The position numbers were made by a program, and so were the translations under genes. The notes under the pieces are model-generated. The model did no database searches. It was not told the DNA's origin and saw only the letters and a list, made by a program, of their open reading frames with translations. Positions 46,043 to 60,662 of a DNA stretch of 64,000 bases are shown in pieces. The stretch's first letter is position 1. Every line of letters starts with the position of its first letter. Source of the stretch: a virus; the IMG/VR virus record IMGVR_UViG_3300027759_000056, positions 1-64,000 of that record. One strand, 5' to 3'.

Positions 46043-46107
46043 GAGATTTCCAAGGTAAGACTTGTAAATATAAATCACTTAATCAAAAGGGGGTGTTTTC
46101 AAAACCA

Positions 46108-46133
46108 AAGGGTTCCGTAAGGAACCCTTTTTT
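46108..46133. terminator. terminator between convergent genes
   Basis: aagggttcc-gtaa-ggaaccctttttt. Confidence 0.8.
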
Positions 46134-46138
46134 GTTGG

Positions 46139-46816
46139 TTATTTTTTCTCTTTTCTAACTACAATCTCATCAATAATTCCGTATTCTAATGCATCATTTG
46201 CACTTAACCACAAATCACGACTTGAGTCTTTCATAACTTGTTTTGCTGTTTTACCACAATACCCACCTAACAAATCAAAAAGAATTTGGTTAATTTTTTT
46301 CCACTCAACCATATCAATTTCTGCGTCTTGAATGTTTCCACGGAACCCACCTGAAGATTGGTGTAACATTGTTCTTGAAAACCTCAAAGATGAACGTTTA
46401 CCTTTGGTACCAGCACCTAATAATACTGAACCCATTGACGCTGCCATACCAGTGTTAACTGTACGAATATCACAACGTATATAATCCATAACATCAACCA
46501 TAGACAAACCTGACTTTACTGAACCACCAGGACTGTCAATATGCATTGTAATGTCTGAACCTTCAACAGAATCCAAATACATTAACTGTGCTTGAACTAC
46601 CGTTGACATATTATCATCAACAGGTCCCGCAACCCATAATAATCTTTCCCTCATTAAACGAGAAAAGATATCCATTTGGGTAACCCTCATTTCTCTTTCT
46701 TCAAGAATGTAGGGTGTCATCGAATTCTCAATTCGTTGATTGTAATAATGTAAATCTAATGAACCTTTACCAAGATGCTTGGTGTAGTAACTTTGAAACT
46801 CTTTTGTAGTATCCAT
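46139..46816 (-). CDS. clpP: ATP-dependent Clp protease proteolytic subunit
   Basis: MDIFSRL..IDSPGGSV..GMAASMG..MLHQ..RD.W.SA..A.EYG. Confidence 0.95.
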   Translation of the reverse strand: MDTTKEFQSYYTKHLGKGSLDLHYYNQRIENSMTPYILEEREMRVTQMDIFSRLMRERLLWVAGPVDDNMSTVVQAQLMYLDSVEGSDITMHIDSPGGSVKSGLSMVDVMDYIRCDIRTVNTGMAASMGSVLLGAGTKGKRSSLRFSRTMLHQSSGGFRGNIQDAEIDMVEWKKINQILFDLLGGYCGKTAKQVMKDSSRDLWLSANDALEYGIIDEIVVRKEKK

Positions 46817-46837
46817 ATTTTATTTTGTATAATTTAG

Positions 46838-46922
46838 TACCGATGGCCGGAGTCGAACCGGCACGGACCTTACAGTCCACAGGATTTTAAGTCCTGCGTG
46901 GCTACCTTTTCACCACATCGGC
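46838..46922 (-). tRNA. tRNA-Leu(TAA)
   Basis: CAGGA-CTTAAAA-TCCTG; long variable arm. Confidence 0.93.
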
Positions 46923-46954
46923 ATTGTTATACAAATATAAGAACTATTTTTTAA

Positions 46955-47446
46955 TTAAACAAATGATTGTTTGTAATCAGACCACAATACTTCAACTTCT
47001 GAACTTATAATAGATGAAAAAACAGTTGGTTCATAAACTCTGTATCTCATTTTCATATTTGCTTCTTCAGGTGTCTTGTTGGCCTTTTTCAAATTACAAG
47101 AAGAACAACATGTTACCAAGTTAGTCCAACTGTTTTTTCCATCACGTGAACGAGGTATGATATGGTCAATTGTTAAATTTTTTTCACTTCCACAATAAAC
47201 ACATTGGTTGTTATCTCTTTTATAGATACGTTTTCTATTTAACCTAACACCTCGTGTTTTAAATCTAACATATGACAATAAACGAATTATTAATGGTTTA
47301 ACATAATTTTTAACTGATGATGATATTTTTTGAGAGTCTTGTTTTAAAACCTCAGCCTTTCCTTTTATGACCAATACAAATCCCTTACGAACCGAAGTTA
47401 CGTTCAAAGGTGTGTAGTCTGAGTTTAATACTAATACTTTATCCAT
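46955..47446 (-). CDS. HNH endonuclease (McrA-like)
   Basis: VLVLN..RD..CVYCG..LTIDHIIPRSR..W.NLVTCC..CN.KK. Confidence 0.88.
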   Translation of the reverse strand: MDKVLVLNSDYTPLNVTSVRKGFVLVIKGKAEVLKQDSQKISSSVKNYVKPLIIRLLSYVRFKTRGVRLNRKRIYKRDNNQCVYCGSEKNLTIDHIIPRSRDGKNSWTNLVTCCSSCNLKKANKTPEEANMKMRYRVYEPTVFSSIISSEVEVLWSDYKQSFV

Positions 47447-47482
47447 TTCAATATGTTTTACAAATTTACAAAATTTATGTGT

Positions 47483-47637
47483 AAAAAAAAAGTCCTGATT
47501 TCTCAGGACCCTTCTAAACACGTTTATTATCTTTTTCGGCGTTTCAAAAGGGTCATAGGTTTATCAAACAATAACGATGGCGTACCGTTAAGATACACAA
47601 TCTCTGTTTGCCCAATATTCATTGCCGTACAATTCAT
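47483..47637 (-). promoter_or_regulatory. putative attenuator 3: 36-aa leader ORF 47637..47527, antiterminator and terminator 47483..47511
   Basis: MNCTAMNIGQTEIVYLNGTPSLLFDKPMTLLKRRKR*; GACCCTT pairs with AAGGGTC in the terminator 5' arm. Confidence 0.55.
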
Positions 47638-47697
47638 CTACACATAAATAGGTGTAAATGTTGAAAAAGTCAAATATTTTGTTTATCTTTCTATCAT

Positions 47698-48051
47698 ATG
47701 AATATTAACTTAAAGTATTTTCTACTAACTTGTTTGTTTTTTTTATTAGGTCAAACTGGTGTGTGGTTCCAACTAAATGCACAATTTATGTGGGATTGGG
47801 CAAAAAAGAATCCATTGGCTATGTCGTTTGTTGGTGTGCCGTTCACATATCTTTTTATATTAGCCACAGGTTATGGTGAAAAAGCATTTATGGGATTAAT
47901 GTGGCCACAAAGATTTTTAGGATTCTCAATTGGTATTGTAATCTACGCAATTTTAACATATTTTTTCTTAAACCAAGGTATGACACCTAAAACATGGGTT
48001 AGTTTGACTTTGGCAATTATGATTATTATAATTCAAGTAATATTTAATTAA
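47698..48051 (+). CDS. 4-TM membrane protein
   Basis: four hydrophobic helices. Confidence 0.7.
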   Translation: MNINLKYFLLTCLFFLLGQTGVWFQLNAQFMWDWAKKNPLAMSFVGVPFTYLFILATGYGEKAFMGLMWPQRFLGFSIGIVIYAILTYFFLNQGMTPKTWVSLTLAIMIIIIQVIFN

Positions 48052-48253
48052 AGTTATGGCATATTGTATTGTAAAATTGATGAAAACTAATAATGGTGTT
48101 GAAATACCTGTTATATTATTGGATAACCACGATGAGGTTTGGGAATTTGATGATGTGGATATTGCCATTAAAATGTCTGAAATTTTAACAAAGAATTCTG
48201 ATTCGGGATATAGATATTTCGTAAAGAAAGTTTAACTTTGTGAAATAATAAAT

Positions 48254-48327
48254 GCCTTCGTAGCTCAGCTGGATAGAGCAACTGCCTTCTAAGCAGTAGG
48301 TCACAGGTTCGAATCCTGTCGGGGGTA
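48254..48327 (+). tRNA. tRNA-Arg(TCT)
   Basis: ACTGC-CTTCTAA-GCAGT. Confidence 0.93.
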
Positions 48328-48462
48328 CAAAATGAAATTTTGGAATAAAGACGAATGGCAAGGTAGGTCCAAAGAACAAGTGGAAAGCTATTATAGAAAT
48401 ATTGGTACCGTAACAACAATTGCGGTTTTATCATTTTGTTTGGTAAGTTTTATCATTTCAAT

Positions 48463-48816
48463 ATGGCACATCCTTTAATTCACGCAAAATCTTCTGCTAA
48501 AAAGTTTGGTGGAAAATTTGAAGATTACATTCATTTACACGATTGGTTAGATGAAACAAAGGCATGGGTGGGACATTCAAATCATAGAATGTTTCGTCAT
48601 CACTCAGAAGGTATTTTTGAGATGGAAAAAATATTTGGTAAATCATTTATTAATAGCGATGGTAAAACAGTTTACACCAGATATGTTGGTGAACAACACA
48701 TAAAAGAAGATTGTTTTAATTACATCCCAACAGCAAAAGATTGGATTGATGCTTTACAGGCTGAAAAGAAACCAATGTGGATGATAAGAACATTGGACCT
48801 CAAAGTTGATGATTGA
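48463..48816 (+). CDS. DUF6915-like protein
   Basis: MAHP..HA.SS..GG..EDY..HDW.D..HR..RHH.EG. Confidence 0.7.
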   Translation: MAHPLIHAKSSAKKFGGKFEDYIHLHDWLDETKAWVGHSNHRMFRHHSEGIFEMEKIFGKSFINSDGKTVYTRYVGEQHIKEDCFNYIPTAKDWIDALQAEKKPMWMIRTLDLKVDD

Positions 48817-48827
48817 TATTTATTATT

Positions 48828-49502
48828 ATGACTCCCAAACAAAAATCAATTTTTGAATTAGTTAGTAAATACGCATCTTCTCGTGGTTGTGAGTATCTTG
48901 AGATGGATGTTGACCCTTGGAATTTCACACCATATAACGGTAGAAATTTTGGTTGTGGAACTGAAAGACATGAAAATCCGCAAAAATTACCATTTGACAT
49001 AAGTGATATGATTACAGAATATGTTGGTGAAAATGCTTCAGATATTGATGAAGATAATTTGAGTGGGTTAAGTTTTAGATTATATCCCCAAACAAGGACA
49101 ATTACTATTAGTGGAACTTATCAAGAAGTTGTTGACGGACCTTTAGATGAAACTGAAAAAAGTGAAGAAGATGATGAAATTCTAAAAGAGATTATGGATT
49201 ATCTTAAAAACGAAGACATATATCCATTTGCGGAAGTTGAGTTTAGTGGTGCTGGTGATGATGGATATATTGAAGATAACTTATATGTTGATGCAGGTTC
49301 AAAACCACAAAGAAAAGTAGGTGATGTTCCAGGGTTAGAGGATTATTTATATGACATGTTAAATGTGTATGGTGGTTGGATGAATGATGAAGGTTCTTTT
49401 GGAAATTTCATGATTGACTCAAGAGCGGGTACAATTACATTAAAATTTACTTGGAATGAATATGCGTATGAAGATGTTGTATTCCATCAAGAAGAATTTT
49501 AA
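48828..49502 (+). CDS. DUF6878-like protein
   Basis: VEFSGAGDDG..GW..DEG..G; usual partner of DUF6915. Confidence 0.6.
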   Translation: MTPKQKSIFELVSKYASSRGCEYLEMDVDPWNFTPYNGRNFGCGTERHENPQKLPFDISDMITEYVGENASDIDEDNLSGLSFRLYPQTRTITISGTYQEVVDGPLDETEKSEEDDEILKEIMDYLKNEDIYPFAEVEFSGAGDDGYIEDNLYVDAGSKPQRKVGDVPGLEDYLYDMLNVYGGWMNDEGSFGNFMIDSRAGTITLKFTWNEYAYEDVVFHQEEF

Positions 49503-49505
49503 CCT

Positions 49506-50132
49506 ATGTCAGTTCTAAACCACAACATACCAAGTTTTAAGGCTTTAGTCCGCAAATCACATTTTACAAAAAACGAATCTGATTTTGAAACATTCTTAAA
49601 TGTTTATTGTTTTGGAATTCAATCTGTTAATGGAAAGATTTTAACTTTTCATGTTATGACAGATGATGGTATGGTAAGAAGTCGTGTACCAATGTCAGAA
49701 ATATTCACAAAACCCCCCACCAATGATATTCCTTTTCATTTCAAACAATTATGGGATTGTTTTTCAGAAAATGTTAGTGTTATAGAATATGATTTTCTTA
49801 AGGGTCATAAAGTTCAAGTTGCCTTAAGAGACGGTAATAAAGTTTGGGGGACCTATATGTTTACTGTGGATTGGTATAACAATCCGTTTAGTGATGAGCC
49901 GTCAGATTATAAGTGTGGACACATCTTCAGTGCTGATGATGGTTACTTGATGTGTCAACCAAATAACAGAATATTTTGGAAAGATTCAAATTGGGTTACC
50001 AAGGGGTTACCTGAAAACCTAAAACAATTCAAAGTAGATACCGAATTACCATCTGTAGAAAATGTTAGTGATAGATGGGTGTCTGAAGATTCCGATAGTT
50101 TTTATTACGATATTTCTTTGATTAAAGAATAA
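49506..50132 (+). CDS. conserved phage hypothetical protein
   Basis: QLWDCF..Y.FTVDW..K.GH..QPNNRI. Confidence 0.7.
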   Translation: MSVLNHNIPSFKALVRKSHFTKNESDFETFLNVYCFGIQSVNGKILTFHVMTDDGMVRSRVPMSEIFTKPPTNDIPFHFKQLWDCFSENVSVIEYDFLKGHKVQVALRDGNKVWGTYMFTVDWYNNPFSDEPSDYKCGHIFSADDGYLMCQPNNRIFWKDSNWVTKGLPENLKQFKVDTELPSVENVSDRWVSEDSDSFYYDISLIKE

Positions 50133-50151
50133 TCTTCATTACCTTTGCTTT

Positions 50152-50715
50152 ATGAAAGTTATATTTTTGGACCACGATGGTGTTATATGTCTATCTGACA
50201 ATTGGGGTAATCGTTTCAAAAAACAAAAAGAGTGGGGCGGTCGTAAATTATCTATGGGTTTGAATGAAATCCCGTTGGAGTATCGTTTTGACAATTTTGA
50301 TAAAAAAGCGATTAAAGTACTTAATGAAATCTTAGAGGAAACAGATGCCGAAATTGTTGTGTCTTCAGATTGGAAGAAATGGGCAACAGTTGAAGAGATG
50401 GGAGAATATTACGAATCACAGGGTATTATCAAAAAACCAATTGCGTTTACTGACTCTATTTTATATGATGACTATGAGAATTTTCCATGGCATAACAAAT
50501 GGGAGTCAGAACAAACTCGTAGTTTGGAGATTGCACAATATCTTGGTCAGAATCCTGTAATTACACATTGGGTGGCAATAGATGATTTGAATATGTCATT
50601 GAGAGAGATAGATGATACATCTTGGGGATTGAAGAACTTTGTATTAACTCCTGTAAATAATGAAGGGATTAAACAAACGGGTATAAAAGAAAAAGTATTG
50701 GAATATTTATTATAA
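50152..50715 (+). CDS. HAD-family phosphatase (RNA-repair-associated HAD type)
   Basis: FLDHDGV..IVVSSDW..WVAIDD. Confidence 0.75.
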   Translation: MKVIFLDHDGVICLSDNWGNRFKKQKEWGGRKLSMGLNEIPLEYRFDNFDKKAIKVLNEILEETDAEIVVSSDWKKWATVEEMGEYYESQGIIKKPIAFTDSILYDDYENFPWHNKWESEQTRSLEIAQYLGQNPVITHWVAIDDLNMSLREIDDTSWGLKNFVLTPVNNEGIKQTGIKEKVLEYLL

Positions 50716-51972
50716 ATGAGAAAAGTTTCTAAACAAAACATTAAAGAAGCTGTTGGTGTTCCAGCAAACATTGAAGTTGCATCACAGAATTTATATAATG
50801 ACATTGCAAAAAAATTAAAGAATAAAGAAATTGGTCCTGAGGATGTTGTTAAATTCAAATTTATTAACAAAGATGGTAGATATTCATTTGGAGATTTTAA
50901 TCCAAATTTTATAACCGCTGAGTTCGGTTTAGGTACTTATTCTGGTGATGCCATAGATAATAGTACCGGAAATAAAATAACGGGTGGGTTGGTTCACAGT
51001 ATGGGATTTTCAAAACAATCAAAATTAAATGATGTATTTGATTTGGTTAGTGTGGATGATGATGGTGGTATTGAATTAAATATTGATTATGCTCAACCTA
51101 ATGATGATGAAGAGTGGTCAGGGAATAAAATTTTGGACACAATGGAAAAAAACAAGTCCAATAGTATATCATCATTGGGGCATGAATTAAAACATGCTTA
51201 CGACAACTACAAAAAGCCGGTAGAAAAATTGGTTGATAGAAGCAATTATGCTGGATTTCAAAGGTCAAGGTCAGGAGTACGACCAATGGACCAATTTATG
51301 TTCAATATGTATTTTATAAATCAAATTGAAAATTTGGTTAGACCAACTGAATCATATGTTGAAATGGTTTCTGATGGTGTTGTAACAAAAGAACAATTCT
51401 TAAAGTTTTTGTTAAATTCAAAAACATATAAAACTTTGGTGCAAATACGTGACAGTTCATTTGATAATTTGGTTGAAGACTTAAAAGGTTACGAAACTGA
51501 AATTGATGATTACTTAAATAACACAGTTGATGATTATGATTCATCTTCATTAGACATTGATGATAAGGTAAAATACTTTCTAAAAGTATTTGCATTCGTA
51601 ACAGCACAAAAGGTTCACGAAGTAAGAAAACAAATGGTTTCTCCAAATATTTTTCAAATGTTATTTAGTAGTAGTTTATTTGGTGGTAATGATGAGGCTG
51701 ATAAATTTTTAGAAAGTACTTTAGGTGATTTAACCAAAATGATGGACAATCCAAATAAGTTTTACTACACTTCAATTGAAAACATGAAAAAAATTGCAAT
51801 TAAAATGATGAAAAAATTGTCAAAACTATACTCTTTAATTAACAAAGACAAAACAATCACTGTTGAAACAAGAGACCCTATGAGTTTTGAGATGGACCAA
51901 TTGATGAGAAAAACTCAAAAACCAAGAAAGATTGATACCAAGTTGGATGAAAGATTTACCAAAAAAAAATAA
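50716..51972 (+). CDS. hypothetical protein with HExxH motif
   Basis: GHELKHAYD. Confidence 0.7.
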   Translation: MRKVSKQNIKEAVGVPANIEVASQNLYNDIAKKLKNKEIGPEDVVKFKFINKDGRYSFGDFNPNFITAEFGLGTYSGDAIDNSTGNKITGGLVHSMGFSKQSKLNDVFDLVSVDDDGGIELNIDYAQPNDDEEWSGNKILDTMEKNKSNSISSLGHELKHAYDNYKKPVEKLVDRSNYAGFQRSRSGVRPMDQFMFNMYFINQIENLVRPTESYVEMVSDGVVTKEQFLKFLLNSKTYKTLVQIRDSSFDNLVEDLKGYETEIDDYLNNTVDDYDSSSLDIDDKVKYFLKVFAFVTAQKVHEVRKQMVSPNIFQMLFSSSLFGGNDEADKFLESTLGDLTKMMDNPNKFYYTSIENMKKIAIKMMKKLSKLYSLINKDKTITVETRDPMSFEMDQLMRKTQKPRKIDTKLDERFTKKK

Positions 51973-51973
51973 T

Positions 51974-52210
51974 ATGATTACAATGGAAGACTTAAAAGAT
52001 TTTGACTTCACAAATGATAGTAAGGTTGAATTTATGACCAAACCAGGTTTTGTAGAAAAACGTATTCAACAAATGATTCAAATTGGTGCGAATGAAGAGT
52101 ATGAAAAATACAGTGAAGGAATGAGTGATGATGACATTGCAAAATGGAAAGAAGGGTTTGTAGTCGGAGCAAACTGGTTATTAAAAAATAAAAACGAAAA
52201 AAATATTTGA
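51974..52210 (+). CDS. hypothetical protein
   Basis: start refined to MITMED. Confidence 0.55.
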   Translation: MITMEDLKDFDFTNDSKVEFMTKPGFVEKRIQQMIQIGANEEYEKYSEGMSDDDIAKWKEGFVVGANWLLKNKNEKNI

Positions 52211-52259
52211 CATATCAATAAACTTTTGTATCTTTGTACCATATTTAATACTAAACACA

Positions 52260-52355
52260 ATGAAACTCGTAAATAAACAAATCGTGAAACATGTCATTCA
52301 ATTCTGTTCGAATTGGTATCTTCGCGTATTCGTAAGTTCGGGTGTTTTAAGTTAA
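52260..52355 (+). CDS. leader peptide of tRNA array 1 (MKLVNKQIVKHVIQFCSNWYLRVFVSSGVLS)
   Basis: 31-codon ORF after TTTG..TATCTTTG promoter; control window matches the array; overlaps the antiterminator. Confidence 0.8.
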   Translation: MKLVNKQIVKHVIQFCSNWYLRVFVSSGVLS

Positions 52356-52407
52356 CACATAGTAGCCTTAAAAAGGAAACCCGAACTCACAAGGTTCGGG
52401 TTTTTTT
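52335..52407 (+). terminator. attenuator 1: terminator 52377..52407 and alternative antiterminator AGTTCGGGT (52335-43) : ACCCGAACT (52379-87)
   Basis: mutually exclusive pairings read directly from sequence. Confidence 0.85.
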
Positions 52408-52413
52408 GTTTTT

Positions 52414-52435
52414 AAGTTCTTTGACATGTTGGTAA
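52414..52435 (+). promoter_or_regulatory. rrn-type boxA-like element
   Basis: AAGTTCTTTGACatgTTGGTAA; repeated before array 2. Confidence 0.7.
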
Positions 52436-52443
52436 TCAAAAAT

Positions 52444-52516
52444 GGGACGGTAGCAAAGATGGTCAATGCGCTGGACTGAAAATCCAGTCATGGTGGTTCG
52501 AGTCCACCCCGTCCCA
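52444..52516 (+). tRNA. tRNA-Phe(GAA)
   Basis: CTGGA-CTGAAAA-TCCAG. Confidence 0.92.
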
Positions 52517-52524
52517 CAATACAT

Positions 52525-52601
52525 TGGTGATTAGCTCAGTTGGTTAGAGCACTACGCTGATACCGTAGGGGTCACAGGTTCAAATCCTGTATCACCAACC
52601 A
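52525..52601 (+). tRNA. tRNA-Ile(GAT)
   Basis: CTACG-CTGATAC-CGTAG; CCA encoded. Confidence 0.92.
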
Positions 52602-52606
52602 TAAAT

Positions 52607-52677
52607 TACCCTTTCGTCTAACGGCAGGACGAGTGGTTTTGGTCCACTTAGTGGAGGTTCGAATCCTTCAGGGGTAA
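52607..52677 (+). tRNA. tRNA-Gln(TTG)
   Basis: AGTGG-TTTTGGT-CCACT. Confidence 0.92.
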
Positions 52678-52683
52678 CAATAT

Positions 52684-52757
52684 GACTTCGTAGCTCAATT
52701 GGCTAGAGCACCGTGCTTTTAACACGGGGGTTTCGGGTTCAAGTCCCGATGGGGTCA
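52684..52757 (+). tRNA. tRNA-Lys(TTT)
   Basis: CCGTG-CTTTTAA-CACGG. Confidence 0.92.
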
Positions 52758-52763
52758 CAATAT

Positions 52764-52836
52764 CTTTCCTTAGCTCAGTTGGAAGAGCACTTGGCTTACA
52801 TCCAAGATGTCGTTGGTTCAAATCCAACAGGAAAGA
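52764..52836 (+). tRNA. tRNA-Val(TAC)
   Basis: CTTGG-CTTACAT-CCAAG. Confidence 0.92.
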
Positions 52837-52843
52837 CAAAAAT

Positions 52844-52925
52844 GCCAGTATCGCATAGCGGCAATTGCGGCGGATTGTAAACCCGCTCTCATTTGAGTTC
52901 GTAGGTTCGAGTCCTACTGCTGGCA
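52844..52925 (+). tRNA. tRNA-Tyr(GTA)
   Basis: GCGGA-TTGTAAA-CCCGC; variable arm. Confidence 0.92.
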
Positions 52926-52987
52926 CAAAACTTATAATCCTCCAAAACTCACTTTTTTTACTAGTTTTGGAGAGTTATAGAATATAA

Positions 52988-53061
52988 GTCCATATGCCTG
53001 AGAGGTTCAAAGGGACAGTCTGCAAAACTGTTATTCGTTGGTTCGATTCCAACTATGGACT
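52988..53061 (+). tRNA. tRNA-Cys(GCA)
   Basis: ACAGT-CTGCAAA-ACTGT; U73. Confidence 0.92.
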
Positions 53062-53063
53062 CT

Positions 53064-53138
53064 GTGACTGTAGTTCAGTGGTAGAGCATCGGCTTGTGGT
53101 GCCGAGTGTCGTGGGTTCGAATCCCATCAGTCACCCCA
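53064..53138 (+). tRNA. tRNA-His(GTG)
   Basis: TCGGC-TTGTGGT-GCCGA; C73 plus CCA. Confidence 0.92.
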
Positions 53139-53143
53139 AATAC

Positions 53144-53226
53144 GGAAGTGGTCCGAATGGACGAGGACACCGCCTTGAAAGCGGCTGGCTGTAAAAGGCT
53201 TGGGGGTTCGATTCCCTTCTCTTCCG
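53144..53226 (+). tRNA. tRNA-Ser(TGA), atypical D-arm junction
   Basis: CCGC-CTTGAAA-GCGG; variable arm; G73. Confidence 0.8.
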
Positions 53227-53234
53227 CAAAAAAT

Positions 53235-53309
53235 GGTTCCTTAGTTTAATTGGATAAAACATCTCGCTACGGACGAGAAGATGTGGGGGTTCGAATCCCT
53301 CAGGAATCA
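53235..53309 (+). tRNA. tRNA-Arg(ACG)
   Basis: TCTCG-CTACGGA-CGAGA. Confidence 0.92.
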
Positions 53310-53316
53310 CAACTAC

Positions 53317-53387
53317 GTAAGTGTGGTGTAATGGTAGCATAAAGGTCTCCAAAACTTTTGGCGAGGGTTCGAGTCCTTCCACTTGCG
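53317..53387 (+). tRNA. tRNA-Trp(CCA)
   Basis: AAGGT-CTCCAAA-ACTTT. Confidence 0.92.
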
Positions 53388-53393
53388 CAAAAT

Positions 53394-53475
53394 ACCAAAG
53401 TGGCGTAACGGTAGCCGCATTAGTCTTAGAAACTAATGTCCTAAGGGCGTGTGGGTTCGACTCCCACCTTTGGTA
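53394..53475 (+). tRNA. tRNA-Leu(TAG)
   Basis: TTAGT-CTTAGAA-ACTAA; variable arm. Confidence 0.92.
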
Positions 53476-53486
53476 CAAAAATAAAT

Positions 53487-53568
53487 TGGCAGGTAGCCTA
53501 GAGGTCAGGCAGCAGACTGTTAATCTGCGACGGAAACGTCTACGTGGGTTCGATTCCCACCCTGTCAG
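53487..53568 (+). tRNA. tRNA-Asn(GTT) with long variable arm
   Basis: GCAGA-CTGTTAA-TCTGC; GACG-GAAA-CGTC arm. Confidence 0.88.
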
Positions 53569-53613
53569 CAAAATATTTTTTGTAAAGTCAAATATCTGTT
53601 GTATATTTGTTGT

Positions 53614-54090
53614 ATGGAAAAGGGGTTTATATCATCTTCAAAAGCAATCAAAGGATATACTGAATCAAAAATTGCCAAATCTGAAAACAACGATTGTGTT
53701 GTTAGAGCAATTGCATCAGCTGCGGATATGGATTATGATTCCGCCCACCAATTCGTTAAAGAAACATTCAATAGAAAAAATGGTAAAGGTACTTTTGGAC
53801 TTGGTACTGGTATGAATTTGTTGTCAAAGAATGGTAAACAAATTAACGGTAAAAACATTCAAATTATTTCTGAAGAACACAACACCATGTTGTATTATGT
53901 GGTAGTTAAAGGTGTAAAAAAATTAAGAGCAACAACAACCGCATCATTCATCAAAAAACACCCTGTTGGTTCTTATGTGGTTGTTGTTAAAGGTCATGCG
54001 TTTACCATCAAAGATGGTGTTGTTATTGGTAACCCTGATGATGGTAAAAAAATGAAAAAACACATTACAGGGGCTTGGAAAATTGGATAA
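53614..54090 (+). CDS. conserved phage hypothetical protein
   Basis: NDCVVRAIA..GHA..KDG. Confidence 0.7.
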   Translation: MEKGFISSSKAIKGYTESKIAKSENNDCVVRAIASAADMDYDSAHQFVKETFNRKNGKGTFGLGTGMNLLSKNGKQINGKNIQIISEEHNTMLYYVVVKGVKKLRATTTASFIKKHPVGSYVVVVKGHAFTIKDGVVIGNPDDGKKMKKHITGAWKIG

Positions 54091-54117
54091 TATGTTTTAA
54101 CTTTGTATAACAATAAT

Positions 54118-54191
54118 GGTGTGGTAGCTCAGCAGGTAGAGCAGTAGATTGAAACCCTACGTGCCACGTGGTTCGATTCCCGTTCACACCA
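54118..54191 (+). tRNA. tRNA-Phe(GAA), divergent second copy
   Basis: GTAGA-TTGAAAC-CCTAC; bulged T stem. Confidence 0.75.
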
Positions 54192-54197
54192 CAAAAT

Positions 54198-54329
54198 AAT
54201 TAGATGGGCGTAATGAGGGATGGTACCCGAGTCCCCAAGATTGGAGGTCACCAGTAATAGGTGGCCGTTGCGTCGTAAGGTTGTCTAATCCGTCCTGAAC
54301 GGTATTCGGTTCGAGTCCGACTCTAATTA
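54198..54329 (+). ncRNA. tRNA-like RNA A (acceptor stem and T arm, expanded core)
   Basis: AATTAGA/TCTAATT; TCGG-TTCGAGT-CCGA. Confidence 0.6.
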
Positions 54330-54407
54330 TGAAAAACTAACCCAGTTTCACAATGAGGGCTGATACCTTCGGAGTGGGGGTGACGGTCAGGAAAGACTGA
54401 CAACCAT

Positions 54408-54565
54408 AGTCAGGTGGCGGAATTGGTAGACGATAATGGAGTTATACTATCAAACACAGAGGGTGCGGCGTAGATGGGAACTACTACATTATCTCTTGGA
54501 CGCAAGAGAGCAATATAACCCTAACCATTTGGTATAACGTGTAGGTTCGAATCCTACCCTGACTA
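54408..54565 (+). ncRNA. tRNA-like RNA C (Leu-like D arm, T arm, structured insert in place of the anticodon loop)
   Basis: AGTCAGG/CCTGACT; GGCGGAATTGGTAGACG; GTAGG-TTCGAAT-CCTAC. Confidence 0.7.
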
Positions 54566-54671
54566 CAAAAACATAAACTCAAGTACCCACACAGTGGTGA
54601 GACGGGCTAAGTAAGATACAATTCCTCGGAACTGGGAGTAGAGAGCTTGAGAGTGTTTTTTAATTAAAAAT

Positions 54672-55355
54672 ATGAAAAATTTAGTAAAAGCAATTATTTT
54701 GGTCATTGTTATAGGAATTTTAGGTTTCATAACAAGTTGGAAAGTTTGGGGTAACAATAAACCAATTGAAGATACCGTTAAAATTGATACGGTAAAAATT
54801 AAACCACAAGACACAATTGTGGATGTTAAAGGAAAATACGTTCTTTTTATTGGTGATTCACATACATCAAATCCTAATGGATGGCAAACAATCTTATCCA
54901 ACAAAACAAAGATGAGAATGAATAACATTTCTGTTGGTGGAAAAACTACAGGTTGGATGTTAGAAAGGGCAAAAGAATCAATTCACGAGAATTTAGATTA
55001 TTGTTTTATCTATGGTGGTGCCAATGATATGTTTAACAGTAAAATTACTATTGAAAGTGCCATAAAGAACATTCAAAGAATTGTTAATATTTGTAATTCC
55101 AAAGGTGTTAAACCAGTTGTGATTACGGGATTTGACCCCCTTACTTGTATTAACACACCAGAAAATCCAAACTATAAATTTAAGTATTCCAAATTTCAGA
55201 ATGAATTGATTAAAAAAATTGTTGGTGGAAAGGTGATTAATACTCGTGTGATTACAAAATCGGATTGTTGGGATGGACTTTGTCATATGGCACCATCAGG
55301 ACATAAAAAAATTGGAAATTGTGTTATCAAAGAAATGAAGTTTAAGACATATTAA
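54672..55355 (+). CDS. SGNH/GDSL hydrolase, membrane-anchored
   Basis: IGDSH..G..GGAND..D..H. Confidence 0.85.
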   Translation: MKNLVKAIILVIVIGILGFITSWKVWGNNKPIEDTVKIDTVKIKPQDTIVDVKGKYVLFIGDSHTSNPNGWQTILSNKTKMRMNNISVGGKTTGWMLERAKESIHENLDYCFIYGGANDMFNSKITIESAIKNIQRIVNICNSKGVKPVVITGFDPLTCINTPENPNYKFKYSKFQNELIKKIVGGKVINTRVITKSDCWDGLCHMAPSGHKKIGNCVIKEMKFKTY

Positions 55356-55376
55356 CACATCAGTATATTTATTGAT

Positions 55377-55814
55377 ATGGAAATTACAAAAAGAGACCTT
55401 TTAAATGGTTTATCATCAAAATCAAATCCAGCAACTGAAACTGCAGATGTGGTTGATATGATTGCAACATTACTTCATTCAAGAAATCAGGCTCATGTTT
55501 TTCATTGGCAAACAAAATCACAATCATCATTTGCTGAACATATGGCCTTAGGTACGTATTACGATGAGATTGTTGAATTAATTGATAATATTGTTGAAAG
55601 TTATCAAGGAAAATACGAAATAATTACTGGTTATAAAACAATTAAAACAGTTGATTATAAATCAACAGAACAAGTAATATCTTATTTTAAAGAATTAGAT
55701 GAAAATATTGAAAAAAATAGAACATCGGTTAAAGAATCCTATATTCAAAATCAAATTGATGGAGTTCAAGAATTGATTTACTCAACATTATACAAATTAA
55801 GATTCTTAAAATAA
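55377..55814 (+). CDS. Dps/ferritin-like protein (DUF5856-like)
   Basis: HVFHWQT..EH.AL..YD...D..VE.YQG. Confidence 0.75.
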   Translation: MEITKRDLLNGLSSKSNPATETADVVDMIATLLHSRNQAHVFHWQTKSQSSFAEHMALGTYYDEIVELIDNIVESYQGKYEIITGYKTIKTVDYKSTEQVISYFKELDENIEKNRTSVKESYIQNQIDGVQELIYSTLYKLRFLK

Positions 55815-55849
55815 TTGACGAATCACGGTTTTAAACATATATTTGCCTC

Positions 55850-56461
55850 ATGGCTAAATACACACTTAATACCTATGGATGGTCTTTTGAGGCTATCTGC
55901 AAATCTCTAACTGACGAACAAGTCCAAATTATTAAAGACAAAATGGAAGAAGAAGGTTTTTCGGAACTCCATGAAATCCGTTTTGATTTGGATGAACTAT
56001 TGGACCTTGATTTTTGGGACGGTGAAATATTTCACAAAACCGAAGCGTTTGACAATGGTACAATGCACTTTGAACTTCTTGATGAAGAAGAAAATAAAGT
56101 ATTAGAGTTTGGTATTGGTGAAACCGCCGACTTATACGAAACAATTGAAGATTTTGAAGAAAAGTATGAGTATAGAGGTTATAGTCCGATTCCTGAAGAA
56201 AAAGGACCAACCAATTTGTATTTAAGCATAGATGAAAACAAAGGTGGGATTTTTACATTCAAACTTGAATCTGATACCATACCGACACCATCGGATTTTA
56301 CTTACTCAACAGGTTCAATAGACACAACTGATGGTGATTATGATTTTATTGACAAAATTTTCTTTAAAGGACAACCATTAGAAATTGAAGATTGTTTGGA
56401 TAATTCAGGGAAATCATCCTCATGTATGATTTATACATTGGATGGTGAAACCATAGAATAA
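55850..56461 (+). CDS. acidic hypothetical protein
   Basis: 203 aa ORF. Confidence 0.7.
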   Translation: MAKYTLNTYGWSFEAICKSLTDEQVQIIKDKMEEEGFSELHEIRFDLDELLDLDFWDGEIFHKTEAFDNGTMHFELLDEEENKVLEFGIGETADLYETIEDFEEKYEYRGYSPIPEEKGPTNLYLSIDENKGGIFTFKLESDTIPTPSDFTYSTGSIDTTDGDYDFIDKIFFKGQPLEIEDCLDNSGKSSSCMIYTLDGETIE

Positions 56462-56465
56462 TTAT

Positions 56466-56539
56466 GGCGAGGTAGCTCAGTCGGTTAGAGCGCAGGATTC
56501 ATAACCCTGAGGTGGGGGGTTCAATTCCCTCCCTCGCTA
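56466..56539 (+). tRNA. tRNA-Met(CAT), elongator-like
   Basis: CAGGA-TTCATAA-CCCTG. Confidence 0.88.
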
Positions 56540-56568
56540 CAAATACATAATTGTGAGTATTTATATAT

Positions 56569-58122
56569 ATGATTTTATTTGAAGGTCGTAAGGAAGACTC
56601 ATTTAAGAAATTCCAAAAAAGTATTGATGGTGAAAGAAAGATGATATCCACTTACATGGATGATGCGTCTGCGTATGATTTTTTAATTGGTGAACCTTTT
56701 ATAAAAGAGACTAATTACAAATATCTTAATGATATTTTGGATTATTATTATACCGTAAATTATTATTCAGGTGAAGCTGAGCCTTTAGACAAAGACAAAG
56801 CAAGAAATCTAATATTTGGAATGAGGAGTGAAATTGACAAGATTGTTGCTTCTTTAGAAACATTTGAAAAACACAAATCCAAATTCAAATATCCTGAGTT
56901 TAGAAAATACAATACAAATATAGAAGATTTTTTTAAGGAAGCTCAAAAGATTAAAACTGACGTTGAGACCAAACAGATTGAAAAATCCGCCAAGAAAGAA
57001 ATAGATAAAATTTTTGAAAACGATACGTTGTTGGTTATAAAACCAAAATCATTTACAGCATCTTGTTATTATGGTTCAGGTACAAAATGGTGTACAACAA
57101 TGAAAGGTAATCCATCGTACTTTAATCAATATAGCTCAAGTGGAAACTTGTATTATTTAATATTAAAAAATGTTGATAGAAGTAACAAGTTTTACAAAAT
57201 GGCTATTCACGCACCAAAGAATAAAAGATTTGATGAAGCTTCAATTTGGTACGATTCAACTGACGAAAGATTAACATCAAGAGAAAAAGAATCTGTATTA
57301 GCTCATATGCCAAAAGACGCTTATAATGCAATGGTTAATGACTATAAAACTTCATTCCCTGAAGAGAATCCAATAGATATTATTTACAAGATAATGCCAA
57401 ATGTGAACCAAAATGTGGATGATTATGTATATAAATTCAAAGGTGGTGAAATAGAATTGGCAATTGATTCACCTGAGATTGAAGATACTGACACAAATAG
57501 TCTTAGAATTAGTTCTACTTGGGGTATATCGGAACAAAGAAATGGTAAAGAGGTTTATCATGAAGATGGTGCCATTGATTGTTATTTGGAATCTTATCCA
57601 AATCAAGTGTTATTACCAAACTATTACATAGTTAAAATAAGTTATGAGATAATACCATATTCAGATACTAAAATTGTTGAAAGATATGATGGTACTACAA
57701 CATTACAACTTGACAACGAAAGAAAAAACGACCCAGAATATGTTAGAATACAACTTAACGGTGCATTAAAACAAATATTTGACGGTTTCCAAAATAAAAT
57801 GGAGTATAGACTTAGAAATGATGAGGATTTATTAGAGAAATATCCACCAACAAAGTCTAAAGCTTATACCATGTCAAAATACACCTTCACAGGTAAAGGA
57901 GCGTTAACCAAAGCATTTATGGAATATCTTAAAAACATTCCTGAAGGTAAGGTCGGTAATAAGAACGAATTTTTAACTCAAATAGGTAGAAGAAGTGGTC
58001 CTGGTCAATATAGTAGTTTCTTTTCAGCGTCAAATATGGCAGGTATTAGTGCCAGACAAGGAAAAAGTGGTTTGGTTAAAGGACCAAACTTTGACAAATT
58101 TTACAAGAAAATATTTGAATAA
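56569..58122 (+). CDS. hypothetical phage protein (PcfJ-like WCT domain, paralogous to 33749)
   Basis: KPKSFTASCYYGSGTKWCT. Confidence 0.7.
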   Translation: MILFEGRKEDSFKKFQKSIDGERKMISTYMDDASAYDFLIGEPFIKETNYKYLNDILDYYYTVNYYSGEAEPLDKDKARNLIFGMRSEIDKIVASLETFEKHKSKFKYPEFRKYNTNIEDFFKEAQKIKTDVETKQIEKSAKKEIDKIFENDTLLVIKPKSFTASCYYGSGTKWCTTMKGNPSYFNQYSSSGNLYYLILKNVDRSNKFYKMAIHAPKNKRFDEASIWYDSTDERLTSREKESVLAHMPKDAYNAMVNDYKTSFPEENPIDIIYKIMPNVNQNVDDYVYKFKGGEIELAIDSPEIEDTDTNSLRISSTWGISEQRNGKEVYHEDGAIDCYLESYPNQVLLPNYYIVKISYEIIPYSDTKIVERYDGTTTLQLDNERKNDPEYVRIQLNGALKQIFDGFQNKMEYRLRNDEDLLEKYPPTKSKAYTMSKYTFTGKGALTKAFMEYLKNIPEGKVGNKNEFLTQIGRRSGPGQYSSFFSASNMAGISARQGKSGLVKGPNFDKFYKKIFE

Positions 58123-58150
58123 TTCTTATTAGTGTCTTATACTTTTGATA

Positions 58151-59419
58151 ATGGAAAAATTATCAAATGTAGGGAACAATATTGTGGGCTCTGAAATTAT
58201 TAAAATCTCACAACAAATCAAAGAAATTGCTAAAACAAAATCAGTATCTAACCTAACCATAGGTGACTTTAATTCCAAACTATGGCCAATACCCTCAAAA
58301 TTAAGAGAACACATTCAAGATGCGTATGAGTGGGATTTAACCAACTATCCAAACTCACAAGGAGAACTTGAATTAAGAGAATCCGTATCCAAACACATTA
58401 AACATCAGTTCAATGTTGATTATTCACCTGAAGAAATATTAATTGGTGGTGGAGTTCGTCCATTAATTTATACGGTTTATAAAGCCACGGTAAATCCAAA
58501 TGAAGAGGTGATTTATCCTGTACCATCTTGGAATAATAACCACTATTGTTTTTTACATAACGCAAAAAAAGAAGAAATTGAATGTACACCTGAAAATTCA
58601 TTTTTCCCAACCGTTGAAGATGTTGACGGCAGAATAAGTGATAAAACATCATTGGTTTGTATTTGTTCACCGCAAAATCCAACAGGTCGTGTAATTGACC
58701 CCGAAGTTCTGAAAGGTATTTGTGAGTTGATTGTGAGAGAAAATAAAATCAGGTCAACACAAGTAGGTTCAAGACCATTGTATTTGTTCTTTGACCAGAT
58801 TTATTCTGACATCACCAAAGAAGGTTTGTTTATCCACCCATTAACTTTATGTCCTGAAATCAGAGATTATTTGATTTGTGCTGATGGTATTTCAAAGTCA
58901 TTAAACGCAACTGGTGTTCGTGTTGGTTGGTTGTTTGGTCCAAAAGATATTATTGGAAAGATGACCGAAGTTTTGTCTCACATTGGAGCATGGGCTCCAA
59001 AACCTGAACAACGAGCATTGGATGCGTACATCAGAGAAGATTATGAAGATTACATTTCTCACATTAACTATGTAACAAAATCGTACGAATTTATATCAGA
59101 TAAAATATGTGGTAAGTTGGAAGAATTGAAAAACAAAGGTCATAATGTTGATTACCAAAAACCTGATGGTGGAATTTATATTTCGGTTTATTTGGGTTAT
59201 GTTCATTCATTTCCAACAACTGAAGAGTATATTTCGTTCTTAATTAATACCTGTGGGTTGGGAATTGTTCCGTTTGAATATTTTGGTTCAAAGAGTAACA
59301 AAGGATGGTTTAGAATATCAATTGGTAATGTTGCCGAGTTAAATTTGGACTCAATTATTAAAACAATTGAAAATTCTGTACAAAAATCAGTAAGTTATGT
59401 AAATTCTTTAGCATTTTAA
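58151..59419 (+). CDS. PLP-dependent aminotransferase class I/II
   Basis: SPQNPTG, DQIY, GISKS..TGVRVGW, FRIS. Confidence 0.9.
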   Translation: MEKLSNVGNNIVGSEIIKISQQIKEIAKTKSVSNLTIGDFNSKLWPIPSKLREHIQDAYEWDLTNYPNSQGELELRESVSKHIKHQFNVDYSPEEILIGGGVRPLIYTVYKATVNPNEEVIYPVPSWNNNHYCFLHNAKKEEIECTPENSFFPTVEDVDGRISDKTSLVCICSPQNPTGRVIDPEVLKGICELIVRENKIRSTQVGSRPLYLFFDQIYSDITKEGLFIHPLTLCPEIRDYLICADGISKSLNATGVRVGWLFGPKDIIGKMTEVLSHIGAWAPKPEQRALDAYIREDYEDYISHINYVTKSYEFISDKICGKLEELKNKGHNVDYQKPDGGIYISVYLGYVHSFPTTEEYISFLINTCGLGIVPFEYFGSKSNKGWFRISIGNVAELNLDSIIKTIENSVQKSVSYVNSLAF

Positions 59420-59476
59420 TTGACACTTTTCAAAAGTTTGATATATTTAATAAGAAATTAAATAATAATACATTCA

Positions 59477-59545
59477 ATGATTACCATCAACATATTCGGC
59501 ACACCAGCAACAGAGGCTGATACTTCCAAAGTGGAGATGGGATAA
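59477..59545 (+). CDS. leader peptide of tRNA array 2 (MITINIFGTPATEADTSKVEMG)
   Basis: 22-codon ORF; control codons match the array; overlaps the antiterminator. Confidence 0.75.
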   Translation: MITINIFGTPATEADTSKVEMG

Positions 59546-59598
59546 TATTGTAAAAAAATATCTTACAAAAACCCATCTCAAAAGGATGGGTTTTTTTT
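59534..59598 (+). terminator. attenuator 2: terminator 59567..59598 and antiterminator GAGATGGG (59534-41) : CCCATCTC (59572-79)
   Basis: mutually exclusive pairings read directly from sequence. Confidence 0.82.
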
Positions 59599-59665
59599 GT
59601 GTTTGTTTGGCAGTATCAAAAAAATGTATTAACTTTGTAGTGTTGAAAAACACAACAGAACAAAA

Positions 59666-59687
59666 AAGTTCTTTGACGTATTGGTAA
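59666..59687 (+). promoter_or_regulatory. rrn-type boxA-like element
   Basis: AAGTTCTTTGACgtaTTGGTAA. Confidence 0.7.
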
Positions 59688-59696
59688 GAAAAAATT

Positions 59697-59768
59697 GCTC
59701 GGTTCATCTATCGGTTAGGATGCTAGGTTTTCATCCTAGAAAGAGGGGTTCGACTCCCCTACCGAGTA
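59697..59768 (+). tRNA. tRNA-Glu(TTC)
   Basis: CTAGG-TTTTCAT-CCTAG. Confidence 0.92.
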
Positions 59769-59777
59769 CAAATAAAT

Positions 59778-59852
59778 AGCGGGGTGGAGCAGAGGTAGCT
59801 TGCGAGGCTCATAACCTTGAGGTCACAGGTTCGAATCCTGTCCCCGCTACCA
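59778..59852 (+). tRNA. tRNA-Met(CAT), initiator-like body with A1:U72
   Basis: AGCGGGG acceptor; CGAGG-CTCATAA-CCTTG; CCA. Confidence 0.88.
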
Positions 59853-59860
59853 AAATAAAT

Positions 59861-59934
59861 CGCGAGTTGGTGTAATGGTAACATAATGGGCTCATAACCC
59901 ATAGTTCCGAGTTCGAGTCTCGGGTTCGCAACCA
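59861..59934 (+). tRNA. tRNA-fMet(CAT)
   Basis: C1:A72 mismatch; GGG/CCC anticodon stem; CCA. Confidence 0.9.
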
Positions 59935-59937
59935 ATG

Positions 59938-60148
59938 GATGTAACTTGGGTCGTGCCACATTGGCCACTTTTACATCAAGAGTCAGAAGGATTAGAGGTG
60001 GCCGTGACTACTCTGACTCGAATACAAAGTACCACGATGCTTACCGTAAGAACAGCACAGTGGTAGATAGAGTTAACGTGAATAACCCAAGGCATAAGCG
60101 TTAACAACCCCCAATAAGACTATTTGGCCAATAGAAACTGTTGGGGTT
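59938..60148 (+). ncRNA. unknown multi-hairpin RNA with loop-loop pairings
   Basis: five stems and two long-range complementarities. Confidence 0.6.
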
Positions 60149-60155
60149 ATTAAAA

Positions 60156-60227
60156 GCGAGTGTAGTATAAAGGCTATTACTCCAGCCTTCCAAGCTGGAT
60201 ATGCGAGTTCGATTCTCGCCACTCGCT
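60156..60227 (+). tRNA. tRNA-Gly(TCC)
   Basis: CCAGC-CTTCCAA-GCTGG; U73. Confidence 0.92.
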
Positions 60228-60230
60228 CAA

Positions 60231-60431
60231 AAAGAACCTTTTCTTACGGAAGTCCGATTAGCGCGGATGAAAGGAACCTTGACTTCACGGGAGTAGCTAC
60301 CCAATTGAAGCTTGAATGACTCAAGGTACTCTGTAATGGACCCTGCTCTATGGTGCACACATAACAGGTGATGGGGAACAAACCATCGGTAAAATCTAAA
60401 CCCACGGTGAGCGTGGAAGGAAAGTTTCTTT
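60231..60431 (+). ncRNA. unknown multibranch RNA of about 200 nt
   Basis: closing helix aaagaaccttttctt/aaggaaagtttcttt enclosing several hairpins. Confidence 0.55.
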
Positions 60432-60436
60432 TTTTT

Positions 60437-60511
60437 GCGGGAGTAGCTCAGGGGTAGAGCTTCAGTTTACCAAACTGAAAGTCGAAGGTTCGAATCCTTT
60501 TTCCCGCTCCA
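60437..60511 (+). tRNA. tRNA-Gly(ACC)
   Basis: GCGGGAG acceptor; TCAGT-TTACCAA-ACTGA; U73 plus CCA. Confidence 0.88.
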
Positions 60512-60579
60512 AATGTAAATCTTAAAAAGGGCCCTTCCGTGTTTATCACGGCTTGTTGGGCCCGGGTTTACTAACTTAC

Positions 60580-60651
60580 GGTCCTGTAGTTAATCGGCTA
60601 TAATATTGCCCTGTCACGGCAAAGTGCCGGGTTCGATTCCCGGTGGGACCG
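60580..60651 (+). tRNA. tRNA-Asp(GTC)
   Basis: TTGCC-CTGTCAC-GGCAA; G73. Confidence 0.92.
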
Positions 60652-60662
60652 CAAAAATAAAA

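Follow-up and report, generated by a model that had tools for sequence, protein, structure and literature searches.

A leader open reading frame listing the amino acids of the tRNA array that it precedes: a putative attenuator in an uncultured giant phage of Bacteroidota

The window analysed here is a stretch of 64,000 nucleotides (nt), i.e. the first 64 kb of the IMG/VR virus record IMGVR_UViG_3300027759_000056 (111,976 bp, estimated completeness 37%), and the system in question is a short leader open reading frame (ORF) followed by an intrinsic terminator, a boxA-type element and an array of 13 transfer RNA (tRNA) genes. The source is an uncultured giant phage of Bacteroidota, and it is regarded as a jumbo phage because its close relatives measure 269-295 kb and are 98-100% complete. 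This phage recurs across freshwater metagenomes, and a blastn search of the INPHARED phage collection returned tRNA-level matches only, with no cultured relative. The tRNA genes were called with ARAGORN (29 in the window) and with Infernal, which detected three tRNAs missed by ARAGORN (a Ser tRNA in the relative L174, a Trp tRNA in the relative G004 and the Ala-like tRNA of the window). The metatranscriptome data consist of assembled contigs only, which give no starts, ends or levels of transcripts and whose uncovered parts are uninformative.

The leader, the RNA switch and tRNA array 1

The first unit of the window is composed of the following features:

52206-52236, plus strand: promoter of leader 1, of Bacteroidota type (TTTG at 52206-09, 19 nt, TATCTTTG at 52229-36)
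52260-52355, plus strand: leader ORF 1, 31 codons from ATG to TAA (ORF scan and conservation)
52299-52315, plus strand: hairpin within leader ORF 1 (CAATTC / GAATTG)
52335-52387, plus strand: antiterminator 1 (52335-43 with 52379-87; 52345-51 with 52367-73)
52377-52407, plus strand: intrinsic terminator 1 (11-bp stem, 5-nt loop, seven T; terminator scan)
52416-52434, plus strand: boxA-type element 1 (19-mer), 9 nt before tRNA-Phe
52444-53569, plus strand: tRNA array 1 (Phe, Ile, Gln, Lys, Val, Tyr, Cys, His, Ser, Arg, Trp, Leu, Asn; ARAGORN and Infernal)

Codons 10-22 of leader 1 (52287-52325) read Lys, His, Val, Ile, Gln, Phe, Cys, Ser, Asn, Trp, Tyr, Leu and Arg, and are followed by three spacer codons and then by AGT TCG GGT. 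Array 1 comprises 13 tRNA genes, each amino acid being represented once, and this set is identical to that of codons 10-22. A first-pass annotation of the same DNA had described both the 31-codon ORF with its run of 13 codons and an array carrying the same 13 amino acids once each; the ORF and the run were found as described, and ARAGORN and Infernal agree on the array. Indeed, all 24 codons from the ATG to the antiterminator are confined to the 13 amino acids of array 1, with Asp, Glu, Pro, Thr and Ala missing from the leader body, as had been claimed, together with any internal Met. The codon boxes of the leader likewise agree with the anticodons of the array (TCG with tga, CTT with tag and CGC with acg), and the AGY-Ser, UUR-Leu and AGR-Arg tRNAs, which the annotation had placed elsewhere in the window, were located at 34797-34882 (Ser(gct)), 46837-46922 (Leu(taa)) and 48254-48328 (Arg(tct)). 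An additional Ser(tga) tRNA, on which the annotation was silent, lies outside array 1 at 35500-35588.

The match between leader 1 and array 1 is far above chance. Among the 223,876 segments of 13 codons in the six frames of the record, 75 are made of 13 distinct residues, and the array 1 set is matched, as a permutation, by codons 10-22 of leader 1 alone. The chance expectation of such a permutation is 0.014 record-wide and 1.6e-5 within 250 nt upstream, and the shuffling that had been proposed as a check gave no set match when applied to the 250-nt upstream stretch (0/20,000 shuffles).

The leader promoter is kept in 7/7 aligned relatives; the consensus TTTG..TAnnTTTG is that of Bacteroides and Flavobacterium promoters. 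An A/U-rich stretch of about 17 nt separates this promoter from leader ORF 1. Within the ORF, the Trp codon TGG (52314-16) sits in the 3' arm of the hairpin, which is probably a pause hairpin synchronising polymerase and ribosome. The core helix of the antiterminator pairs AGTTCGGGT (52335-52343) with ACCCGAACT (52379-87), and the stop codon of the leader (52353-55) is in the antiterminator loop. Pairing of the 3' end of the ORF with the 5' arm of an intrinsic terminator at 52377-52407 had been proposed by the annotation; the terminator was recovered by the terminator scan, and the pairing is the minimum-energy fold of a transcript cut before the terminator 3' arm (-15.2 kcal/mol, z-score -3.0), the fold of the full unit 1 transcript being the terminator (-23 kcal/mol). 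When Arg22 occupies the A site, the front of the ribosome should presumably lie at about 52335-37, given the usual ribosome footprint, and therefore even the last codon of the inventory would leave the antiterminator strand nearly free. By the same geometry, a ribosome on the stop codon would cover this strand.

Conservation among relatives and covariation across phage systems

Relatives were chosen by terminator 1 and not by the segment at the end of the ORF, which gave 8 IMG/VR loci and 79 metagenome contigs with 38 unique leaders of 30-35 codons, belonging to about 12 clades. The ATG, the frame and the stop are retained in 38/38 unique leaders, and the peptides are almost unalignable between clades; in a 28-sequence alignment, the indels within the ORF measure 9, 3 and 3 nt and the gaps past the stop are of arbitrary length. 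The frame is thus kept despite a near-complete turnover of the sequence, which argues for coding constraint on the leader ORF. The Ser-Ser-Gly end is always written AGT TCG GGN; AGT TCG GG is invariant in 42 unique sequences, among which AGTTCGGG shows no synonymous variation. This AGT TCG GG segment is complementary to the terminator 5' arm, and in 42/42 truncated transcripts the minimum-energy fold is closed by the antiterminator helix (-14 to -20 kcal/mol). Judged from these alignments and folds, the 3' end of the leader is conserved as RNA and not as peptide.

These observations bear on the proposal that the leader peptide acts in trans, or that the ORF loads ribosomes against Rho, the composition match being a by-product. 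The ORF is clearly conserved as an ORF, and some leader peptides act in trans (peTrpL, PMC7298713). However, the peptide turns over almost fully between clades, with composition, ORF length and RNA pairing being kept, the sole invariant residues are fixed at the nucleotide level, and ribosome loading would not need the amino acids of the array, all of which makes this proposal highly improbable.

TGG is invariant in the 28 aligned leaders, where it stands six codons ahead of AGT (five codons in the clade of L166, L196 and L222). In every clade, the 3' arm of a hairpin contains this TGG (all z-scores negative, with a mean of -1.7 relative to codon shuffles); between clades the hairpins do not line up in the alignment, and that of L006 has two compensatory pairs. 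Furthermore, a metatranscriptome contig of run X17 covers 52296-52442 and 52513-52754, i.e. the leader, the terminator, boxA and tRNAs, which is a weak hint of read-through transcripts, and a second metatranscriptome contig skips tRNA-Ser exactly, as relatives do.

Comparison of leader composition with array content in relatives, another check proposed with the annotation, showed that the leader tracks the array, with exceptions in L184, L205 and L183 (see below). An array tRNA-Ser(tga) is accompanied by TCG within the control codons, at codon 17 in the window, L193, L174 and L199, and at codon 11 in G004; 24 loci (14 haplotypes) lack both this tRNA and the Ser codon, and no locus has the tRNA without the codon. 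Where tRNA-Ser is absent, TCG is replaced by CAG (Gln), which differs by two nucleotide changes and still specifies an array amino acid. In ten clade representatives, the leader accounts for 11-14 of the 13-15 amino acids of the array, Trp, Cys and His included (individual P values from 1e-4 to 5e-2, by comparison with random peptides having the phage composition), and the fit of leaders to their own array is the best among relatives (P 1e-4 at 4.5 kb and 0.02 at 2.5 kb, kinship being partly controlled). In the long single-leader loci L205 and L183, leader 1 also has Thr, Gly and Pro, to which Glu and Ala are added in L205 and Asp in L183, and tRNAs matching these extra codons sit downstream. 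No second leader or terminator was found in these two loci, L205 having a second boxA at +2068. An internal ATG shows a loose tendency to go with an array tRNA(cat) (G002 and the clades of L223 and L205 fit, but G004 and the L183 clade do not), and the use of UUR versus CUN Leu codons is noisy when set against Leu(caa) and Leu(tag) tRNAs.

IMG/VR was also scanned with a 17-mer of the boxA element alone, the content of leaders not being consulted in choosing, and at least 115 contigs were obtained. Matches lie 24-60 nt before a tRNA array in 41/116 cases, and 30/41 of these boxA-led arrays have a terminator and a small ORF upstream; the remaining cases inspected are internal boxA copies preceded by tRNAs, L292 being cut at the contig end. 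The arrays vary widely in content, and the leaders vary with them. For example, the L232 array (Pro-Pro-Gln-Tyr-Thr-Gly-Gly-Lys-Lys-Lys) is preceded by a leader with 17 consecutive codons from its six array amino acids, and other arrays include Lys-Gly-Trp-Ala-Asp-Asn-Asn (L239) and Asp-Asp-Glu-Glu-Val (L234). Over 23 distinct systems, the leader covers 98% of the amino acids of its own array versus 78% when permuted (z 5.4), with a Jaccard z of 5.7 and 0/200,000 permutations reaching the observed value. Duplex energies were also compared over these 23 systems: the final 33 nt of the ORF pair with their own terminator 5' arm at an average of -10.6 kcal/mol versus -7.0 +/- 0.42 kcal/mol when permuted (0/5000), and the terminator stems are clearly distinct between systems (e.g. 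L332, L321, L248, L291). The predicted antiterminator hence covaries with the terminator across systems, as the annotation had asked of related phages.

The boxA elements and the second unit

The 19-nt motif found at 52416-52434 has two occurrences in the record, one before each of its two tRNA arrays, and all relatives retain it. When 185,579 species genomes were scanned, more than 120 matches were returned, nearly all in Bacteroidota, for about 17 expected (our estimate, the ratio of about 1.2e12 bases on both strands to 6.9e10 possible pattern matches). Among 83 occurrences of the 19-mer, 29 lie just before 23S ribosomal RNA (rRNA) (30-150 nt), 4 lie 140-240 nt before 16S rRNA and several more resemble rRNA flanks; in the four genomes checked with Rfam, the motif is located 13-27 nt before 23S rRNA, past the spacer tRNAs. 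Compared with the Escherichia coli rrn boxA, its core has 2/12 positions changed, and it retains G2, C5 and U6, on which the binding of NusB/NusE critically depends (PMC3177189). By sequence and placement, the motif before the arrays is identified as the rRNA-operon boxA of Bacteroidota. A reading of the motif as a phage promoter was rejected, since it has only two copies in the record and equals the boxA of rRNA spacers and leaders in Bacteroidota. The arrays appear to be built like rRNA operons, because a boxA heads them, and because boxA acts in RNA, transcription must start upstream of it; for array 1 of the window, the leader promoter is the sole recognisable promoter upstream.

The exact phage 19-mer is also present in L050, L059 and L108 (Aquirufa and other Bacteroidota), as well as at the 29 loci preceding 23S rRNA. 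In freshwater Aquirufa it stands in the 16S leader, with two copies in L059, and this identity with an Aquirufa-type boxA may help to narrow the host. In a Pedobacter locus considered as a host analogue (L077, boxA 160 nt before tRNA-Arg), no leader or terminator was found.

The second unit of the window is composed as follows:

59420-59449, plus strand: promoter of leader 2 (TTGACA ... TATATTTA), kept in five genomes
59477-59545, plus strand: leader ORF 2, 22 codons
59534-59598, plus strand: antiterminator 2 and terminator 2 (59534-41 with 59572-79; 59548-53 with 59563-68; terminator at 59568-59598)
59606-59637, plus strand: second promoter of unit 2 (TTTG, 20 nt, TAACTTTG), between terminator 2 and boxA 2
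59668-59686, plus strand: boxA element 2 (sequence match, conserved)
59697-62201, plus strand: tRNA array 2 (Glu, Met twice, Gly twice, Asp, a weak Ala(TGC)-like element, Pro, Thr, Ile(tat) and Met(cat))

Codons 8-16 of leader 2 read Gly, Thr, Pro, Ala, Thr, Glu, Ala, Asp and Thr, codon 6 is ATA and the final three codons are Glu, Met and Gly. This leader also has Ile, Phe, Asn, Lys, Ser and Val codons and is less pure than leader 1; among 223,900 nine-codon segments, however, only 7 (3 loci) are as pure as its codons 8-16, being confined to Glu, Met, Gly, Asp, Ala, Pro and Thr with at least 6 of them present. Together, the two leaders and the two arrays divide the 20 amino acids 13 + 7. Antiterminator 2, in which the end of leader ORF 2 (59534-41) pairs with the 5' arm of terminator 2 (-14.7 kcal/mol, z-score -3.6, 0/200 shuffles), is kept in five genomes, as is terminator 2. 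The promoter at 59606-37 is kept in 5/5 genomes and is variable solely at its two free positions; since it lies downstream of terminator 2, array 2 has an unattenuated entry too.

This leads to a further explanation, according to which ORF and terminator form an independent unit and the array is transcribed from its own promoter near the motif, with no attenuation. Indeed, a Bacteroidota promoter ahead of array 2 is conserved in the interval from terminator 2 to boxA 2, and in L014 and related clades a box resembling TATCTTTG lies after terminator 1 and before the motif. However, the motif is an rRNA-operon boxA, which lies inside transcripts (16S-23S spacer) and misfits the -33/-7 spacing, array 1 of the window has no promoter past its terminator, and both the amino-acid match and the covariation of the ORF end with the terminator arm would be left unexplained. 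Independent transcription of the arrays is consequently held to be quite unlikely as the sole explanation of the locus.

The tRNA genes of array 2 are interspersed with other RNAs and small ORFs. A freshwater-1 RNA (RF02979) lies on the plus strand at 60332-60394, between the tRNA-Gly genes (73.8 bits, gathering score 72), and this motif was also noted at L029:16248-16310, a copy in the relative G004 scoring 70.1 bits; from its position inside array 2, the orphan motif freshwater-1 is thus co-transcribed with phage tRNAs. The divergent tRNA-Ala(TGC)-like element (60663-60732, plus strand) reaches 29.5 bits with Infernal (threshold 29) and was not called by ARAGORN. It aligns to a normal tRNA-Ala at the same place in relatives, and a near-identical sequence stands just before boxA in the unrelated phage contigs L241 and L292. 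The long non-tRNA spacers at 59935-60155 and 60229-60331 (plus strand) gave no Rfam match.

Proposed attenuation of the tRNA arrays and related systems

Unit 1 associates a conserved short ORF, codons cognate to the array, an intrinsic terminator and an antiterminator at the ORF end that covaries with it. These features support the attenuator reading of the first-pass annotation, to which boxA, the hairpin inside the ORF and a read-through default of the untranslated leader are added here. We consider it likely, with good confidence, that the arrays are controlled by ribosome-mediated attenuation, in which slow decoding leads to read-through and processive transcription dependent on boxA then ensues. 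Host RNA polymerase would start at the Bacteroidota-type promoter and a ribosome would translate the 31-codon leader. A ribosome running to the stop at 52353-55 would cover 52335-51, so that the terminator at 52377-52407 would form and array 1 would stay off, and a ribosome lingering at any leader codon would let 52335-43 pair with 52379-87, thereby blocking the terminator. The polymerase would then read boxA (52416-34), probably gain the Nus-factor antitermination modification of rRNA operons and transcribe the array. Read in this way, the phage probably makes the array tRNAs only when ribosomes read the listed codons slowly, and the circuit would be a negative feedback on tRNA supply, because phage tRNAs would speed leader translation. 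Hungry codons may result from tRNA decay after host shut-off, from anticodon nucleases, from charging or from the demand set by phage codon usage. More broadly, it seems fairly probable that a family of giant Bacteroidota phages possesses a per-codon meter of tRNA supply, in which every tRNA operon would be gated by a leader listing its amino acids, two or more leaders would partition the code, and the operon opened by a slowly decoded codon would be transcribed in the rRNA-operon mode through boxA.

Several observations weigh against attenuation by codon-specific stalling. Outside the window, the match of leader and array is statistical rather than exact, and most leaders of relatives hold amino acids foreign to their array. 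L184 has TCG in its leader but no tRNA-Ser in its array; the L205 clade has TCA (codon 3) without tRNA-Ser(tga), and a tRNA-Arg without an Arg codon; the L183 clade has neither Tyr nor Ala codons, and in its G005 variant Leu is missing too. Replacements in the closest clade were not significantly biased to array amino acids (14 in, 3 out; P 0.17). Sensing would rely on single codons, whereas classical leaders use runs. With regard to the RNA, terminator 1 is about 8 kcal/mol more stable than the antiterminator, and the choice between the folds must therefore be kinetic. No anti-antiterminator (1:2 segment) was found in the folds of unit 1, in which the hairpin (extended, 52279-52331) excludes 52335-43; an untranslated leader should therefore read through, and arrays would come on when translation collapses. 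The attenuator is not always the sole entry, some clades having a -7-like box between terminator 1 and boxA and array 2 having the conserved promoter that bypasses its attenuator. Finally, the X17 RNA contig may be DNA carry-over.

Alternatively, the same switch might sense amino-acid starvation or a general failure of translation (uncharged tRNA, few free ribosomes) and not the loss or cleavage of particular tRNAs, the array being a general stress output. Leader-peptide attenuators answer to charged tRNA, whatever limits it, the lack of translating ribosomes should give read-through without an anti-antiterminator, and the tRNA array of Anabaena is induced by general translational stress (PMC8421152). 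However, additional tRNA genes cannot relieve a shortage of amino acids, and both the one-to-one listing and the partition of the code between two leaders, each with its own array, speak for tRNA-specific sensing. A response to starvation or general stress is accordingly rated as unlikely.

Among known systems, the enterobacterial leaders, including the multivalent ones (thr with Thr and Ile; ilvGMEDA and ilvBN with Ile, Leu and Val) and those of trp, his, leu and pheA, were compared with the phage units. As in these leaders, a short ORF carries regulatory codons, the antiterminator overlaps the end of the ORF and the terminator 5' arm, the stop is placed so that a finishing ribosome would mask the antiterminator, and more than one amino acid is sensed. 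Unlike them, the units lie in a phage, would regulate tRNA genes and not biosynthetic enzymes, have a boxA behind the terminator and list 13 (or 7) amino acids mostly once each, without runs; unlike trp and his, they have three RNA segments and not four, and the untranslated state should be ON. In the pheST attenuator of E. coli, a leader peptide controls an aminoacyl-tRNA synthetase operon. There too, slow decoding raises the supply of decoding capacity, but one amino acid is sensed, the product is a protein and the gene is cellular. T-box riboswitches similarly use transcription attenuation to read tRNA status through a codon-like specifier before translation-related genes, but bind the tRNA directly, without ribosome or ORF; T-boxes are rare outside Firmicutes. 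No match to T-box or to Rfam leader families (His_leader, Trp_leader, Thr_leader, Leu_leader and others) was obtained at 44000-64000 with E <=0.1, where the matches are tRNAs, freshwater-1 and sub-threshold Plastid-ycf2 matches antisense on tRNA genes.

The trn operon of Anabaena sp. PCC 7120, the closest published example of an inducible tRNA array, is a silent long array switched on by translational stress (PMC8421152), under the control of the repressor TrcR, which acts on repeats over the -10 box (PMC10272220). Like this operon, the phage arrays are supernumerary, horizontally mobile and, as proposed here, off until translation is impaired; unlike the phage arrays, it has no leader peptide, terminator switch or codon inventory. 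The boxA shares with those of rrn operons and lambda nut sites (NusB/NusE) its 12-nt core and its position at the head of a long untranslated structured transcript, but here it immediately follows a conditional terminator, within the tRNA operon of a phage.

Full-text literature searches returned no published case of leader-peptide control of tRNA genes. If confirmed, this would be the first known ribosome-mediated attenuator to act on tRNA genes, and also the first in which as many as 13 inputs operate independently, and leader-peptide attenuation would be extended to non-coding RNA genes and to many simultaneous inputs. Current ideas on why phages carry tRNA genes are that they compensate for codon usage, replace host tRNAs that have been degraded, or let the phage evade anticodon nucleases. 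A codon-by-codon sensor would show a phage measuring a decoding shortfall and answering it with matching tRNAs, a result favouring models of supply on demand, and it would do so with an antitermination signal borrowed from host rRNA operons. Natural leaders with TCG versus CAG offer built-in controls for reporter tests, and annotators would gain a rule for spotting such leaders, which are skipped by gene callers.

Other elements were noted around the two units. No viral relatives were found for a 418-aa protein encoded upstream. A gene at 50152-50715 (plus strand), 1.5 kb upstream, encodes the HAD domain of 'Swiss Army Knife' RNA repair proteins (PF18143), which fits a theme of tRNA damage but proves nothing. 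A ClpP protease (46139-46816, minus strand), a starvation-inducible-regulator-like protein (55377-55814, plus strand) and, directly before leader 2, a class I/II aminotransferase (58145-59419, plus strand) are also encoded. A candidate third leader with attenuator lies on the minus strand (47636-47478), upstream of an HNH endonuclease gene, of tRNA-Leu(taa) and of the ClpP gene. It is a 36-codon ORF with 18 amino acids, the 3' part of which pairs with the 5' arm of a terminator (antiterminator -16.4 kcal/mol, z-score -4.3; terminator -22 kcal/mol, z-score -4.2), and there are promoter-like boxes between, with no boxA. Past array 1, a 158-nt match to the tRNA model (54408-54565, plus strand, 30.5 bits) consists of a tRNA frame interrupted by about 85 inserted nt, and near the equivalent place in relatives ARAGORN reports a 'tRNA-???' with a two-letter anticodon. 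Within array 1, the sole long gap (52927-52987, plus strand), between tRNA-Tyr and tRNA-Cys, contains a 10-bp inverted repeat at about 52940-52972 with no T run; this 62-nt gap is kept in relatives, and its inverted repeat may be a processing site.

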